Sequence record: ON239131 | Strand: one strand, 5' to 3' | DNA: 30,272 nt | Origin: Escherichia phage S164 | Part shown: piece by piece, positions 4,082-16,240 of the stretch | How the letters are laid out: every line of letters starts with the position of its first letter | Numbering within the stretch: position 1 is the stretch's first letter | Position numbers and translations under genes: made by a program | Notes under the pieces: generated by a model | What the model was told of the DNA's origin: nothing | What the model saw: only the letters and a program-made list of their open reading frames with translations | Databases searched by the model: none

Positions 4082-5155
4082 ATGCGCCAGGAAACCCGCT
4101 TTAAATTTAATGCCTACCTGTCCCGTGTTGCCGAACTGAACGGCATCGACGCCGGTGATGTGTCGAAAAAATTCACCGTTGAACCGTCGGTCACCCAGAC
4201 CCTGATGAACACCATGCAGGAGTCCTCTGATTTTCTGACCCGCATCAACATTGTGCCGGTCAGCGAAATGAAAGGGGAAAAAATTGGTATTGGTGTCACC
4301 GGCTCCATCGCCAGCACCACCGACACCGCCGGTGGCACCGAGCGTCAGCCGAAGGACTTCTCGAAGCTGGCGTCCAGTAAGTACGAATGCGACCAGATTA
4401 ACTTCGATTTTTATATCCGCTACAAAACGCTGGACCTGTGGGCGCGTTATCAGGATTTCCAGCTCCGTGTCCGTAACGCCATTATCAAACGTCAGTCCCT
4501 TGATTTAATCATGGCCGGTTTTAACGGCGTGAAGCGTGCCGAAACCTCTGACCGCAGCAGCAATCCGATGCTGCAGGATGTGGCGGTCGGCTGGCTGCAG
4601 AAATACCGCAATGAAGCCCCGGCGCGCGTGATGAGCAAGGTTACTGACGAGGAAGGTCACACCACCTCTGAGGTCATCCGCGTGGGTAAGGGCGGTGATT
4701 ATGCCAGCCTCGATGCACTGGTGATGGATGCGACCAACAACCTGATTGAGCCGTGGTATCAGGAAGACCCTGACCTTGTGGTGATTGTGGGGCGTCAGTT
4801 ACTGGCGGACAAGTATTTCCCCATCGTTAACAAGGAGCAGGACAACAGCGAAATGCTGGCCGCTGACGTCATCATCAGCCAGAAACGCATCGGTAACCTG
4901 CCGGCGGTACGCGTCCCGTACTTCCCGGCGGATGCGATGCTCATCACGAAGCTGGAAAACCTGTCCATCTACTACATGGATGACAGCCATCGCCGCGTGA
5001 TTGAGGAAAACCCGAAACTCGACCGCGTGGAGAACTACGAGTCAATGAACATTGATTACGTGGTGGAAGACTACGCCGCCGGTTGTCTGGTGGAAAAAAT
5101 TAAGGTCGGTGACTTCTCCACACCGACTAAAGTGACCGCAGAGCCGGGAGCGTAA
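4082..5155 (+). CDS. N: Major capsid protein, P2 gpN
   Basis: 357 aa, equal to P2 N, in the O-N-M order. Confidence 0.9.
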   Translation: MRQETRFKFNAYLSRVAELNGIDAGDVSKKFTVEPSVTQTLMNTMQESSDFLTRINIVPVSEMKGEKIGIGVTGSIASTTDTAGGTERQPKDFSKLASSKYECDQINFDFYIRYKTLDLWARYQDFQLRVRNAIIKRQSLDLIMAGFNGVKRAETSDRSSNPMLQDVAVGWLQKYRNEAPARVMSKVTDEEGHTTSEVIRVGKGGDYASLDALVMDATNNLIEPWYQEDPDLVVIVGRQLLADKYFPIVNKEQDNSEMLAADVIISQKRIGNLPAVRVPYFPADAMLITKLENLSIYYMDDSHRRVIEENPKLDRVENYESMNIDYVVEDYAAGCLVEKIKVGDFSTPTKVTAEPGA

Positions 5156-11328: not shown

Positions 11329-11932
11329 TTCGCGCCTGCTGCCGACCGGCTCATCACCGCTTGAGGTCGCCGCCGCAAAAGCCTGTGCGGAAATTGAAAA
11401 AACGCCGGTCAGTATTCGTGAGCTGTGGAACCCGGACACCTGCCCGGCAAATCTGCTGCCGTGGCTGGCGTGGTCATTTTCGGTTGACCGCTGGGATGAT
11501 AAGTGGCCGGAAGCGACAAAACGCGCTGTTATCCGCGATGCGTATTTCATTCACTGCCATAAGGGCACTATAGGCGCAATCCGGCGTGTGGTGGAGCCGC
11601 TCGGCTATCTGATTGAGGTGAGGGAGTGGTGGCAACTCAACGAGGAGCCGGGGACGTTCCGCATCGTTGTTGGCGTGCTTGAGCAGGGTATTACCGAGGA
11701 AATGTATCAGGAGCTGGAGCGTCTCGTTGCTGATGCAAAACCTGCAAGCCGCCATCTGACGGGACTGGCTATCAGTTTAAGTACAACCGGCAACATTTTT
11801 GCCGGTGCGGGATGCTATCACGGCGACGCCCTGACGGTTTATCCCTACACCCCGGAGGCCATTATTGTCGGAGGGGATTATTTCCCGGCCTCGGCCATTC
11901 ATTTAATTGATAACCTGAGAGTAAACGCATGA
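11321..11932 (+). CDS. I: Baseplate/tail protein, P2 gpI-like
   Basis: 203 aa, in the gpI position (P2 I is 176 aa). It overlaps the J stop and the H start. Confidence 0.8.
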   Translation: MSDSRLLPTGSSPLEVAAAKACAEIEKTPVSIRELWNPDTCPANLLPWLAWSFSVDRWDDKWPEATKRAVIRDAYFIHCHKGTIGAIRRVVEPLGYLIEVREWWQLNEEPGTFRIVVGVLEQGITEEMYQELERLVADAKPASRHLTGLAISLSTTGNIFAGAGCYHGDALTVYPYTPEAIIVGGDYFPASAIHLIDNLRVNA

Positions 11933-13344
11933 CAGTGAAATACTACGCCATTCTGACTAATCAGGGCGCGGCACGGCTGGCTAACGCGACGATGCTCGGA
12001 AGTAAGCTGAATCTGACGCAAATGGCCGTTGGTGATGCGAATGGTGTCTTGCCGACACCAGACCCGGCACAGACAAAGCTGATTAATCAGAAACGCATTG
12101 CACCGCTGAATCTTCTGAGTGTTGACCCGAACAACCAGAGCCAGATTATTGCGGAGCAAATCATCCCTGAGAACGAGGGCGGATTCTGGATCCGTGAGAT
12201 TGGGCTTTATGATGATGAAGGCGTACTCATTGCGGTGGCGAACTGCCCGGAAACGTACAAACCGCAGTTGCAGGAAGGCAGTGGTCGTACCCAGACTATC
12301 CGCATGATTCTGGTTGTCACGAACACCGAAGCCATCACGCTGAAAATCGACCCGTCGGTGGTACTGGCGACCCGTAAATACGTGGATGATAAGGTCCTGG
12401 AATTAAAGCTGTATGTGGATGACCAGATGAGAAACCACATTGCCGCACAGGATCCTCATACCCAGTATGCACAGAAACATAATCCGACATTTACCGGAGA
12501 ACCAAAAGCGCCGACGCCTGCCGCAGGAAATAACACCACGCGGATTGCGACTACTGCGTTTGTTCAGGCCGCTATTACCGCTCTGATTAACGGTGCGCCA
12601 GCCACGCTGGACACACTGAAAGAAATTGCCGCAGCCATTAACAATGACCCGAAATTCAGTACCACCATTAACAATGCGCTGGCACTAAAAGCCCCGCTGT
12701 CGAGTCCGGCACTCACCGGAACGCCAACAGCACCTACTGCGGCACAGTCGGTCAACAATACACAGATTGCCACCACGGCTTTTGTGAAATCAGCAATTGC
12801 GGCAATGGTGGGTTCTGCCCCTGCGGCACTGGATACACTGAATGAACTGGCGGCGGCGCTGGGGAATGACCCTAACTTTTCAACAACAGTGCTTAATGCA
12901 CTGGCAGGTAAACAACCGCTGGACAATACGCTGACTAATTTGAGTGGAAAGGATGTAGCTGGTCTTCTCGCATACCTTCAATTGGGAGAAGCGGCAAAAC
13001 GTAATGTCGGCACCGGTGCAAACCAGATACCGGACATGAACAGTTTTACGTCAGGAAGTACGACAACAGCAGACTGGTACAAGTTACCTGGTGGGTTGCT
13101 TATTCAGTCAGGGATTAATGCGGTTGGTTATATTGGTTCGCCGTTTACTATCGGTCTTCCGGTTGCATTTTCGAACGCCAATTACCGCATAGTTGCCAGT
13201 TATGACAACGCGAGAGCTAACGCAACCTACGGTTTTGCAATGTCTGCCCTCCCGTCAACTGCATCAGCATTCACAATTAACTCAAGTTCAAATGCATCAG
13301 TCGGGCCGGTTTACGCTTACTGGATTGCAATCGGTAAATACTAA
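11929..13344 (+). CDS. H: Tail fibre protein, P2 gpH-like: constant N-terminal part plus invertible C-terminal tip (Sv)
   Basis: 471 aa. Opens MTVKYYAILTNQGAARLANA, which matches my recollection of the P2 H N-terminus. Contains tandem 75-aa fibre repeats. The C-terminal 122 aa or so lie downstream of the predicted inversion crossover site. Confidence 0.85.
   Translation: MTVKYYAILTNQGAARLANATMLGSKLNLTQMAVGDANGVLPTPDPAQTKLINQKRIAPLNLLSVDPNNQSQIIAEQIIPENEGGFWIREIGLYDDEGVLIAVANCPETYKPQLQEGSGRTQTIRMILVVTNTEAITLKIDPSVVLATRKYVDDKVLELKLYVDDQMRNHIAAQDPHTQYAQKHNPTFTGEPKAPTPAAGNNTTRIATTAFVQAAITALINGAPATLDTLKEIAAAINNDPKFSTTINNALALKAPLSSPALTGTPTAPTAAQSVNNTQIATTAFVKSAIAAMVGSAPAALDTLNELAAALGNDPNFSTTVLNALAGKQPLDNTLTNLSGKDVAGLLAYLQLGEAAKRNVGTGANQIPDMNSFTSGSTTTADWYKLPGGLLIQSGINAVGYIGSPFTIGLPVAFSNANYRIVASYDNARANATYGFAMSALPSTASAFTINSSSNASVGPVYAYWIAIGKY
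12529..12978 (+). repeat. Tandem duplication (2 x 225 bp, 75 aa) inside H
   Basis: NNTTRIATTAFVQAAITALINGAPATLDTLKEIAAAINNDPKFSTTINNALALKAP aligns with NNTQIATTAFVKSAIAAMVGSAPAALDTLNELAAALGNDPNFSTTVLNALAGKQP. The period is exactly 225 nt, from 12529 to 12754. Confidence 0.8.
12965..12990. other. Predicted left crossover site of the tail-fibre inversion (gix/pix-like, 12-2-12 dyad, centre TT at 12977-12978)
   Basis: TTCTCGCATACC TT CAATTGGGAGAA is an imperfect palindrome. It sits where the H codons YLQLGEAA align with the NVRLAEAG codons of the minus-strand alternative fibre tip. It matches the reverse complement of the right site at 17 of 26 positions. Confidence 0.45.
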
Positions 13345-13356
13345 AAGGCAAATATC

Positions 13357-13779
13357 ATGGGTGAAACAGATTATATTTTCAGTGCGTTCCTGAATGGTTT
13401 TTTACCGCTGGCGTGGAAAGAAGAGAAAGAGGCAACAGGTTCGTGGCCTGATGACGCAATTGAAATAAGCTATGAAGATTATTTGAAGTTTACGACCGAT
13501 GCGCCGAAGGGAAAAATATTGGGTTCGGTTGACGGGCGACCGGCATGGGTTGATATCCCACCGCCGACACATGAAGAACTGATTGCCAGTGCAGAAGCAA
13601 CAAGATTAAGACTGAAGGCTAATGCAGATGCTGAAATCGGCTGGCGACAGGATGCCGTTGATGCGGGCATTGCGACGGACGAGGAAACCGCCATACTCGC
13701 CGAGTGGAAAAAATACCGGGTCTTGCTGATGCGCGTCGACACAGCAAAACCCGTATGGCCTACGCTTCCGACTGCATAA
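13357..13779 (+). CDS. G: Tail fibre assembly chaperone, P2 gpG-like, inside the invertible segment
   Basis: 140 aa. The C-terminal ATDEETAILAEWKKYRVLLMRVDTAKPVWPTLP resembles the C-terminus of P2 G and the Mu U family (roughly ...TDEE..L..W..Y..L..RVD.A.P.WP..P, from memory). Confidence 0.8.
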   Translation: MGETDYIFSAFLNGFLPLAWKEEKEATGSWPDDAIEISYEDYLKFTTDAPKGKILGSVDGRPAWVDIPPPTHEELIASAEATRLRLKANADAEIGWRQDAVDAGIATDEETAILAEWKKYRVLLMRVDTAKPVWPTLPTA

Positions 13780-14023
13780 TATCAATTAATATCGGTTCGC
13801 CGTTCTCATCGACGGCGAGCATTTTCCCAGCCGGTATTTCTGTTGCGGTAAAAAACCAGTTATCATCCGGCAGTTCTACGGCCCCTTCAGTGCTATGAAT
13901 GCCGGGGATAACTTCATTAAGTGTCTCAGGATTAAAAAGGCGCATAGCGAGCACTCCAATAAAAACCGTCAGCGGATGTTGTTCCATCAGATCGTAATAC
14001 AAGAAAAGTAGCTTTTGTTGCAT
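13760..14023 (-). CDS. Alternative, apparently short tail fibre assembly chaperone (G'/U'-like), minus strand of the invertible segment
   Basis: 61-87 aa depending on which ATG is used. It converges on G and sits in the U' position of Mu-type G segments. It shows only weak resemblance to the N-terminal half of the chaperone family. Confidence 0.45.
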   Translation of the reverse strand: MQQKLLFLYYDLMEQHPLTVFIGVLAMRLFNPETLNEVIPGIHSTEGAVELPDDNWFFTATEIPAGKMLAVDENGEPILIDIMQSEA

Positions 14024-14369
14024 CAGTTAAATCAGTTATGACCATCGGTACCCTGACCTTATAAGGGGTTGCTGATGACAATAACAGCGGAGTGGTAGTG
14101 ATAACCTGTGCAGGAGCAGGCAGAGAAATCGGATAATAAACCGCAGCATTTCCCGATATGTTAGCCACAGCATTTCCCCACACCTCTATAGTGCCATCGC
14201 TCCAGATTCGGTATTTACCATTCGCATTCGAGCCTGTTTTAGTCACCACGGCACATTTATCTGTATCGGTATTAACGTTACCAATCAGTGCCAATTTTCC
14301 ACTGGTATTTCCCGCTTCTGCTAAACGAACGTTTATGAAAATGCAGAGATAACGGGTAACTGGCATCAT
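13932..14369 (-). CDS. Alternative tail fibre C-terminal tip (Sv'-like), promoterless in this orientation
   Basis: Minus-strand ORF whose N-terminal codons (INVRLAEAGNTSGK) align in frame with H at the predicted crossover. An in-frame TAA lies just upstream on the minus strand, so it can only be expressed as an H fusion after inversion. Confidence 0.6.
   Translation of the reverse strand: MMPVTRYLCIFINVRLAEAGNTSGKLALIGNVNTDTDKCAVVTKTGSNANGKYRIWSDGTIEVWGNAVANISGNAAVYYPISLPAPAQVITTTPLLLSSATPYKVRVPMVITDLTDATKATFLVLRSDGTTSADGFYWSARYAPF
14316..14341. other. Predicted right crossover site of the tail-fibre inversion (gix/pix-like)
   Basis: The plus strand reads TTCTGCTAAACG AA CGTTTATGAAAA, a 12-2-12 imperfect palindrome close to the Gin/Hin/Cin/Pin site family (TTxTCxxAAACC NN GGTTTxxGAxAA). 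It lies about 50 bp upstream of the invertase gene, as gixR does in Mu. Confidence 0.5.
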
Positions 14370-14396
14370 CTCCGGTTTTTATTCAGGGGGATGCTC

Positions 14397-14990
14397 ATGC
14401 TTATTGGCTATGTACGCGTGTCAACAAATGACCAGAACACGGAATTGCAGCGTAACGCGCTGGAGTGCGCGGGATGTGAGCGGATTTTTGAGGACAAAAT
14501 CAGCGGCACGAAGTCCGACCGACCGGGACTGAAAAAACTGCTCAGAACATTATCAGCAGGTGACACTCTGGTAGTCTGGAAGCTGGACAGGCTGGGGCGT
14601 AGTATGCGGCATCTGGTCATTCTGGTTGAGGAACTGCGCGAACGCGGCGTTAATTTTCGCAGCCTGACAGATGCTATTGATACCAGCACGCCGATGGGGC
14701 GTTTTTTCTTTCATGTGATGGGTGCCCTGGCTGAAATGGAGCGAGAACTCATTGTCGAGCGGACACGCGCCGGACTGGAAGCGGCCAGAGCTAAAGGTCG
14801 TATTGGTGGCAGACGTCCGAAACTCACCGCGAGTGAGTGGGAGCAGGCCGGGCGGTTGCTGGCTGCAGGGGAATCACGTCAACGCGTGGCACTGATTTTT
14901 GATATTGGCCTGTCCACGCTCTATAAAAAATTCCCCGCCTCAGTGACAAAAAATAAATTGTGTCATCCCTTAGCCAACCGGGACAAATAG
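14397..14990 (+). CDS. Serine site-specific DNA invertase (Gin/Pin/Cin/Hin family)
   Basis: MLIGYVRVSTNDQNTELQRNALECAGCERIFEDKISGTKSDRPGLKKLL ... GRIGGRRPKL has the catalytic Ser in the YVRVST motif and a C-terminal helix-turn-helix. It is near-identical in pattern to Mu Gin and e14 Pin. ATG 14391 is also possible; 14397 gives the MLIGY start typical of the family. Confidence 0.9.
   Translation: MLIGYVRVSTNDQNTELQRNALECAGCERIFEDKISGTKSDRPGLKKLLRTLSAGDTLVVWKLDRLGRSMRHLVILVEELRERGVNFRSLTDAIDTSTPMGRFFFHVMGALAEMERELIVERTRAGLEAARAKGRIGGRRPKLTASEWEQAGRLLAAGESRQRVALIFDIGLSTLYKKFPASVTKNKLCHPLANRDK
14957..14983 (+). promoter_or_regulatory. Candidate Ogr-dependent late promoter element for FI (P_F)
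   Basis: TTGTGTCATCCCTTAGCCAACCGGGAC lies 67-93 bp upstream of the FI ATG. The same 27-mer architecture (TTGTGTCA-N7-GCCAWCCGGGAC) stands upstream of O. Confidence 0.4.
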
Positions 14991-15049
14991 CCTGACATCT
15001 CCGGCACAACTGAAAATATCACTCACCCATTAACCACGGAGTTAAACGG

Positions 15050-16240
15050 ATGAGTGACTATCATCACGGCGTGCAGGTGCTGGAGATTAACGACGGCACC
15101 CGCGTCATTTCCACCGTATCCACTGCCATTGTCGGCATGGTCTGCACGGCCAGCGATGCGGATGCGGAAACCTTCCCCCTCAATAAACCGGTGCTGATTA
15201 CCAATGTGCAGAGCGCAATTGCAAAGGCCGGTAAAAAAGGCACGCTGGCGGCATCGTTGCAGGCCATCGCCGACCAGTCAAAACCGGTCACCGTTGTCGT
15301 GCGTGTGGAAGACGGCACCGGCGACGACGAGGAAACGAAACTCGCGCAGACCGTTTCCAATATCATCGGCACCACTGACGAAAACGGTCAGTACACCGGA
15401 CTGAAAGCCCTGCTGGCGGCGGAGTCGGTAACCGGTGTTAAACCGCGTATTCTTGGTGTGCCGGGGCTGGATACCAAAGAGGTGGCTGTTGCACTGGCAT
15501 CAGTCTGTCAGAAGCTGCGCGCTTTCGGATATATCAGCGCATGGGGCTGTAAAACCATTTCCGAGGTGAAAGCCTACCGCCAGAATTTCAGCCAGCGTGA
15601 GCTGATGGTCATCTGGCCGGATTTCCTCGCATGGGATACGGTCACCAGTACCACCGCCACCGCGTATGCCACCGCCCGTGCGCTGGGTCTGCGCGCTAAA
15701 GTCGACCAGGAGCAGGGCTGGCATAAAACGCTGTCCAACGTCGGGGTAAACGGTGTTACCGGCATCAGCGCCTCTGTATTCTGGGATTTGCAGGAGTCCG
15801 GCACCGATGCTGACCTGCTTAACGAGTCAGGCGTCACTACGCTGATTCGCCGCGACGGTTTCCGATTCTGGGGTAACCGTACCTGCTCTGATGACCCGCT
15901 GTTCCTCTTTGAAAACTACACCCGCACCGCGCAGGTGCTGGCCGACACGATGGCTGAGGCGCACATGTGGGCGGTGGACAAGCCCATCACCGCAACGCTG
16001 ATTCGCGACATCGTTGACGGCATCAATGCCAAATTCCGTGAGCTGAAAACAAACGGCTATATCGTGGATGCGACCTGCTGGTTCAGCGAAGAATCCAACG
16101 ATGCGGAAACCCTCAAGGCCGGAAAACTGTATATCGACTACGACTATACCCCGGTGCCTCCTCTCGAAAACCTGACCCTGCGCCAGCGTATTACCGATAA
16201 ATACCTGGCAAATCTGGTCACCTCGGTTAACAGCAATTAA
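15050..16240 (+). CDS. FI: Contractile tail sheath protein, P2 gpFI
   Basis: 396 aa, equal to P2 FI. Confidence 0.9.
   Translation: MSDYHHGVQVLEINDGTRVISTVSTAIVGMVCTASDADAETFPLNKPVLITNVQSAIAKAGKKGTLAASLQAIADQSKPVTVVVRVEDGTGDDEETKLAQTVSNIIGTTDENGQYTGLKALLAAESVTGVKPRILGVPGLDTKEVAVALASVCQKLRAFGYISAWGCKTISEVKAYRQNFSQRELMVIWPDFLAWDTVTSTTATAYATARALGLRAKVDQEQGWHKTLSNVGVNGVTGISASVFWDLQESGTDADLLNESGVTTLIRRDGFRFWGNRTCSDDPLFLFENYTRTAQVLADTMAEAHMWAVDKPITATLIRDIVDGINAKFRELKTNGYIVDATCWFSEESNDAETLKAGKLYIDYDYTPVPPLENLTLRQRITDKYLANLVTSVNSN

Follow-up and report, generated by a model that had tools for sequence, protein, structure and literature searches.

The tail-fibre locus of Escherichia phage S164 (sequence record ON239131), analysed here within a 30,272-nucleotide stretch referred to throughout as the window, is very probably a site-specific switch of the Din family (Gin/Cin/Pin/Hin type), by which a P2-like prophage inverts DNA to change the tip of its tail fibre. 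In the sequenced orientation the fibre gene H ends in one variable tip (tip A), and a second tip (tip B, or Sv') lies on the opposite strand ahead of an intact serine invertase gene; two 26-bp sites in inverted orientation enclose both tips, and recombination between them would place tip B in frame behind the constant part of H, a junction of which natural examples exist in prophages with other backbones. The switch itself is known biology, and the cassette is unusually compact and rare in the collections searched.

Recombination sites and reading frames

An initial annotation of the window, made from the sequence alone, had proposed a recombination site inside H and an inverted partner next to the invertase gene, both of the 12-2-12 form (Table 1). 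Every 26-mer of the window was scored over 20 specified positions against a half-site consensus (TTCTCNNAAACC) that had been drawn in part from these two sites and was validated afterwards on Mu and e14; the two proposed sites are the joint best of the 30-kb window at 16/20, the next best reaches 13/20, and none of 200 shuffled windows attains 16. The same scan, run blind on Mu and e14, returned as top hits the annotated G-segment boundaries and the two P-segment sites, respectively. In each site of the window a 2-bp core separates two imperfect inverted half-sites of 12 bp, and the sites lie in inverted orientation with the core TT read in the same sense, i.e., they have the 26-bp inverted form of Din-family sites. 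In a repeat search, no inverted repeat of the region was longer than the one formed by the two 26-mers (34 nt, 71% complementary). A third site, as in shufflon-like multiple inversion, was also sought: no other 26-mer of the window scores above 13/20, which argues for a simple two-state switch.

The core TT occupies codon positions 2-3 in both sites, so the earlier claim that the H and Sv' frames match across it stands. Simulated inversion of 12979-14327 yields an uninterrupted open reading frame (ORF) of 481 amino acids (aa), ...DVAGLLAYL/RLAEAGNTSGK...YAPF (the slash marks the junction), in agreement with the predicted in-frame fusion of H to Sv'. The crossover falls within the fibre ORF, and one N-terminal constant part can be joined in frame to either tip, both in the simulation and in a natural protein described below (P0121). 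Each tip also has its own downstream gene inside the segment, the Caudo_TAP gene G for tip A and a conserved 61-aa gene for tip B. All elements named in the initial annotation for an architecture of the Mu G or e14 P type were found, and the segment is indeed compressed to 1.35 kb, the Mu G segment measuring ~3.06 kb and the e14 P segment ~1.8 kb. The codon phase of the core dinucleotide is identical in 8/8 systems compared, Mu and e14 included, and any cassette would therefore be in frame in any backbone.

According to the mechanism proposed here, invertase dimers would bind the two 26-bp sites and cut each of them at its central TT, one pair of half-sites would be rotated, and 12979-14327 would be inverted. 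The sequenced orientation would give the constant part of H with tip A, then the Tfa chaperone G, and the flipped orientation the constant part of H with tip B in frame, then the 61-aa gene, the flipped junction being ...CATACCTT joined to CGTTTAGCAGAA; the outcome would be virions with the other receptor-binding tip. Tips A and B, between which BLASTP finds no pairwise similarity, may recognise different receptors, and the switch would then be one of host range. Judging from the Din family, the segment presumably flips in this lysogen, inversion would require an enhancer to which Fis binds near the 5' end of the invertase gene, and the 61-aa protein may help tip B to fold or function.

Table 1 Features of the tail-fibre locus, with positions in the window (a dot in the strand column marks features listed without a strand)
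Feature	Position	Strand	Details
Tail-fibre gene H	11929-13344	+	471 aa; Pfam Phage_tail_fib N-terminal domain and Gp53-like_C
Constant part of H (equivalent to Sc of Mu), including the N-terminal tail-collar domain (fibre-baseplate attachment)	11929..12978	+	PF12571, residues 1-150, E 3e-62
Left recombination site, inside H	12965..12990	.	TTCTCGCATACC TT CAATTGGGAGAA; 16/20 against consensus
Variable tip A (Sv), joined to H and expressed in the sequenced orientation	12979..13344	+	Gp53-like_C, H residues 385-469, E 1e-12
G/Tfa, tail-fibre assembly protein paired with tip A	13357..13779	+	140 aa; Caudo_TAP E 6e-31; phrog_188 E 2.5e-46
61-aa gene paired with tip B	13760..13945	-	Listed ORF 13760-14023; homologues start at 13945
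Variable tip B (Sv'), at present unjoined to H	13932..14327	-	Homologues carry PF21882; fused to three fibre constant parts (P0001, P0002, P0121)
Tip B ORF including its own ATG	13932-14369	-	145 aa; weak Gp53-like_C match, E 5e-4
Right recombination site	14316..14341	.	+ strand TTCTGCTAAACG AA CGTTTATGAAAA; - strand TTTTCATAAACG TT CGTTTAGCAGAA; 16/20
Invertase-side flank	14330..14369	-	Provides an in-frame ATG-ATG and 14 codons (MMPVTRYLCIFINV) to the tip that is silent in either orientation
Serine DNA invertase of the Pin/Gin family, intact	14397..14990	+	Resolvase E 8e-53 and HTH_7 E 6e-13
Candidate Fis-bound recombinational enhancer (putative)	14418..14482	.	Conserved block at the 5' end of the invertase gene

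The cassette in other phage backbones

Positions 12977-14343 recur at 99.6-99.9% identity in a Mu-like prophage (L005), in another myovirus backbone (L006-L008) and in a prophage of the 186/P2 family (L010), in all of which the cassette lies the other way round with respect to fibre gene and invertase gene alike. In the flanking DNA, the invertase genes are 70-80% identical; the constant part of the fibre has 80% identity in L010 and is unrelated in L005-L008. Homology to the window breaks at the core TT at both ends, the outer half-sites being locus-specific and the inner half-sites common to all.

A search of a protein collection with the junction and with the whole fusion retrieved three fibre proteins that carry tip B at the predicted residue: P0002 (226 aa) of the Mu-like prophage, P0001 (275 aa) of the other myovirus-type prophage of E. 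coli, and P0121 (481 aa), the tip B H protein of the 186/P2-family prophage. P0121 has the length of the predicted fusion, reads ...GLLTYL/RLAEAGNTSGK... at the junction, and is 100% identical to Sv' of the window beyond it; the sites of the same prophage are the exact reciprocal, i.e., recombinant, combination of the four half-sites of the window. These natural junctions and half-site patterns place the crossover where the initial annotation had put it.

The left site consists of an outer half that belongs to the phage backbone (identical in Escherichia phage pro483, KR073661, and in Peduovirus magyaro 'P2' of E. coli T22, KC618326) and an inner half that belongs to the cassette (identical in L005, L006 and L010), and the outer half of the right site, CGTTTATGAAAA, is identical to the pinE-side half-site of e14 and to the corresponding half-sites of pro483 and L010. 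Both pro483 and the T22 phage have the backbone of the window at 96-97% identity (97% at the DNA level for the constant part of H as far as the crossover site), the same outer half-sites and the same location between G and FI, but a different cassette, ~1.9 kb long, in which the tips are e14-like and the two tfa genes are both full-length. Together with the homology breaks at the core, this cassette swap indicates a module that is exchanged between phages at the core dinucleotide. The cassette seems portable on these comparisons, with the inner half-sites travelling along and the outer half-sites remaining with each phage.

For the cassette of the window, neither the phage collection nor a set of 5,426 complete E. 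coli genomes yielded a close match at the DNA level, except for the conserved 3' end of tfa. An exact search with the junction retrieved 11 IMG/VR contigs (L018-L028), all with the parental-type junction and other tips; they share the left junction and the next ~60 nt (12979-13038, encoding QLGEAAKRNVGTGANQIPDM) with the window and diverge beyond 13038 into those tips. This divergence ~60 nt inside tip A points to a second, homology-based exchange boundary just within the cassette.

Two Logan contigs from independent sequencing runs (L002 and L003, 1476 and 1474 bp) correspond to positions 12949-14424 of the window and contain the cassette in isolation, with one end 29 nt to the left of the crossover and the other within the conserved 5' part of the invertase gene. 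An assembly-graph branch caused by inversion was considered for these ends and rejected, the right end lying 95 nt past the crossover and both ends lying where other prophages share sequence; the likely cause of the isolation is sequence common to other prophages in the samples, rather than inversion.

Invertase, partner gene and locus context

The serine invertase gene has an intact ORF whose first ATG is at 14391, homologues beginning at 14397. Its product has Gin as best match among solved structures (3UJ3, E 7e-95), retains Ser9 and every column invariant among eight invertases, and is identical to PinE of e14 at 86%, to Gin of Mu at 77%, to the invertase of L010 at 87% and to that of pro483 at 189/197 residues (96%). 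In the T22 phage (L001), the invertase frame (4524-5075) is lost after about residue 129, and its switch is therefore probably locked. The invertase-side site of that phage (4379-4468) is a perfect inverted copy of the H site together with a duplication of ~78 bp of H, and the half-site usual in the outer position, CGTTTATGAAAA, is shifted to just past this duplicated site. Between the right site and the invertase start of the window, positions 14358-14377 (+) hold a weak hairpin followed by a T run, in a flank conserved in pro483, T22 and L010, which could restrict read-through from the fibre operon into the invertase gene.

A candidate enhancer lies at the 5' end of the invertase gene, where the block GTRTCAACAAATGACCAGAAYAC is invariant among the window, L010, pinE and Mu gin. 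The enhancer of Mu was mapped in the corresponding 5' coding block of gin (Kahmann 1985, as cited in PMC3798978), and the centre of the block is ~97 bp from the crossover, which fits the ~100 bp between the Hin enhancer and the nearer site (PMC3798978). Among identical-residue codon pairs of the aligned invertase genes, the frequency of synonymous differences is 0.19 in codons 1-15 (14397-14441) versus 0.3-0.67 elsewhere; such low variation is consistent with a cis-acting element that overlaps this part of the gene. G-N13-C cores, taken here as the Fis-core pattern, occur at gene positions 29 and 78 with conserved position, the second being rich in G+C.

The start of the 61-aa gene shares 14 nt with the end of tip B, and its 3' end shares 20 nt with the 3' end of G. 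Its family comprises 78 clusters across Enterobacterales, all of 56-86 aa, all annotated as hypothetical and none with a Pfam domain. Three additional backbones have a homologue behind a tip that is 69-79% identical to Sv': a Mu-like Citrobacter farmeri prophage, a lambdoid prophage in Yersinia enterocolitica and a myovirus-type prophage with a non-invertible fibre. Comparison with these copies gives ratios of non-synonymous to synonymous substitution rates (dN/dS) of 0.06-0.19, i.e., purifying selection. The Yersinia enterocolitica locus (L014, GCA_053679015.1, 4001-6306) has an invertible-looking cassette after a GpJ-like gene, with both gp53-like tips followed by short ORFs (57 and 74 aa) and the Caudo_TAP gene absent. 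In another genome (L015, GCA_040777105.1, 4001-8421), a prophage that has neither invertase nor second tip contains a tip with 79% identity to Sv' together with the 56-aa partner gene of that tip, followed by a 657-aa Acyl_transf_3/SGNH acyltransferase and then an integrase.

The initial annotation had regarded the product of this gene as a short chaperone; none of the tests run placed the protein in the Tfa/Caudo_TAP family. Like the Tfa chaperones (Mu U, lambda Tfa, P2 G; Caudo_TAP), it is encoded in the tfa position directly after the tip and co-varies with the tip; unlike them, it has no match to Caudo_TAP (PF02413), no significant profile-profile match to Tfa proteins and no C-terminal helical region, its alignment ending before the ...W..Y..L..VD....WP..P motif of that region, which is conserved in Tfa and thought to drive trimerisation (PMC9608196). 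Profile searches matched phrog_5400, of unknown function, at E 6e-17, and phrog_188 (Tfa) over the middle part at only E 4e-4. An AlphaFold model (predicted local distance difference test, pLDDT, 93) gives a small beta-rich domain to which no solved structure is similar, TfaMu being absent from the matches, and the best match among viral models is a 60-aa 'tail fiber assembly protein' of Pantoea phage LIMEzero (probability 0.97, template modelling score 0.56, E 0.08). On these results the protein is not filed as Tfa. Where its gene lies and how it co-varies with the tip speak for an accessory role specific to that tip, and the protein is a candidate minimal fibre-binding accessory protein for tip B.

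The ATG-ATG with which the 145-aa ORF of tip B begins (14369) belongs to the invertase-side flank and precedes the crossover by 13 codons. The initial annotation had held that a start codon belonging to Sv' itself could place the true crossover elsewhere; the start codon exists, and the crossover site remains unmoved, since an ATG is found at the equivalent place in the other systems. All invertase systems compared (the window, L012, L011, L029, L010, L005 and L006) have an in-frame ATG that precedes the crossover by 5-13 codons, and the same flank arrangement occurs in pro483, L010, e14 and Mu, and also in L005 and L006 despite their unrelated flank sequence.

The window covers nearly all of a Peduovirus (P2-like) genome, with 97.4% identity to pro483 across 92% of 25 kb. 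The exact H protein is recorded on a single contig (64.9 kb) of E. coli assembly GCA_019368225.1, one source lists it as 'tail protein [Escherichia phage S164]', and a literature search found no mention of phage S164. From the baseplate gene I to the sheath gene FI (at 15050), the gene order is H, G/Tfa, 61-aa gene, tip B ORF and invertase, and that of P2 itself is G, terminator, fun(Z), FI. The cargo of the window (61-aa gene, tip B and invertase) lies between G and FI, in the Z/fun hotspot, so that the earlier description of the switch as standing in place of Z/fun is accurate as to position. An invertase with inverted neighbouring genes is frequent in this hotspot of P2-like phages (bioRxiv 10.1101/2024.10.15.618418), and deposited, annotated public records already include P2-like phages with an invertase and inverted fibre genes there. 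A perfect 14-nt inverted repeat (TGGTTTTTTACCGC) is also present at 13395-13408 inside G and 13845-13858 inside the 61-aa gene, in different frames, with a rough chance expectation of ~0.02 per 3.1 kb.

Among known switches, the P segment of e14 with PinE (E. coli K-12) is alike in its central TT, gp53-like tip, convergent overlapping partner genes, crossover inside the fibre ORF and related invertase, and in having both the CGTTTATGAAAA half-site and the flank encoding MMP...FINV. However, e14 is a defective lambdoid element with a longer segment, inner half-sites that are close to perfect and two tfa genes (137 and 200 aa), both of Caudo_TAP type, whereas the locus described here belongs to a complete P2-like genome and has the shorter segment, one 61-aa partner gene and more degenerate inner half-sites. 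PinE, PinQ and PinR all invert the e14 P segment (PMC12529663), and inversion of the tail-fibre locus has been detected by sequencing in P2-like prophages of enteropathogenic E. coli (E2348/69), with confirmation by polymerase chain reaction shown for e14 (PMC4272514). The G segment of Mu with Gin (and the C segment of P1 with Cin) likewise combines a constant fibre part, two tips each with a partner gene, 26-bp sites and an invertase beside one site, and the 5' coding block of the mapped Mu enhancer is conserved in the window together with the invertase; Mu differs in its longer segment, its central dinucleotide GA/TC, and its U and U' proteins, which are both full-length Tfa.

Alternative explanations and implications

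Several observations weigh against a switch that is active in this phage. Only one orientation is on record for it: the source contig (L009) and the two Logan contigs are collinear with the window, and the flipped junction of this phage was not found in IMG/VR, GTDB species genomes or JGI metagenomes. The inner half of the left site mismatches the consensus at three positions adjoining the centre (TTCTCCCAATTG), and a promoter scan of 13300-15100 gave no sigma-70 consensus promoter for the invertase. The evidence for the enhancer is only suggestive, the second candidate core being G+C-rich, and with a partner that lacks the Tfa C-terminal trimerisation region the fibre of the flipped state might be less competent. 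The single orientation, the mismatches and the missing consensus promoter, together with the existence of locked relatives such as the T22 phage, would accord with a frozen relic, i.e., an inherited architecture that no longer flips, owing to degenerate inner half-sites or a silent invertase, and that uses tip A only. We nevertheless consider this unlikely, as the invertase ORF is intact with all invariant columns kept and 96% identity to the pro483 enzyme, four backbones, with both orientations represented, share these inner half-sites, and functional natural sites such as hixR are equally degenerate near the centre.

It could also be argued that the opposite orientations found elsewhere arose by independent insertion of the cassette, through homologous or illegitimate recombination, and are uninformative on the crossover point. 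The flipped copies do sit in different backbones and none in this one, the IMG/VR contigs do have a second exchange boundary ~60 nt inside tip A, and serine invertases strongly prefer intramolecular sites. This explanation is very improbable, however, in view of the identity that starts and stops at the central dinucleotide, at both ends, in three foreign backbones with unrelated outer half-sites, which is the signature of cleavage at the crossover, and of the exact reciprocal combination of half-sites in L010. Inversion between the two 26-bp sites remains the preferred reading of the locus.

A further proposal concerns the output of the switch rather than its existence, namely that, besides the virion fibre, inversion sets which tip is translated from the ATG at 14369 as a free protein of ~140 aa, possibly masking a receptor against other phages. 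A tip product without the N-terminal domain of H could not attach to the baseplate. StfE2, the ORF made by e14 inversion from a pinE-side start and a gp53-like tip, was reported in a 2025 study to block T2 adsorption (PMC12529663), and a second output in the lysogen is therefore conceivable here, where both tips are gp53-like. The in-frame flank ATG of the window, pro483, L010, e14 and Mu, found also in the unrelated flank of L005/L006, is consistent with it, as is the GGAG or AGGA directly before the ATG in the window and in e14. Yet a spacing of 0-3 nt from this Shine-Dalgarno-like motif to the ATG is unfavourable, the promoter scan was negative, conservation of the flank may instead serve the invertase promoter, and this phage is intact rather than cryptic, so that we regard a double output as rather doubtful.

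On a broader and tentative view, which we hold to be possible but far from probable, the cassette would be a self-contained, portable host-range module that recombines precisely at the 2-bp core, passes in this way between unrelated phages (P2-like, 186-like, Mu-like and another myovirus) and is kept in frame by a universal codon phase. It would bring with it a new class of ~60-aa tip partners in replacement of the canonical Tfa, and, the silent tip always standing behind an in-frame ATG, a lysogen might make a free receptor-binding domain as an anti-phage defence. As inversion of e14 is reported to yield an anti-phage tip protein, the conserved silent-side ATG is of interest in intact P2-like lysogens.

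For annotation, the 145-aa 'hypothetical protein' and the 61-aa ORF are to be read as the second half of a two-state fibre gene, rather than as stand-alone genes. The 61-aa family (~78 clusters in Enterobacterales, at present unannotated) provides a candidate minimal partner for gp53-like tips. Finally, the locus is a very clean natural case of receptor-binding cassettes exchanged exactly at invertase crossover sites, and suggests a simple rule for the engineering of host range by cassette swapping.

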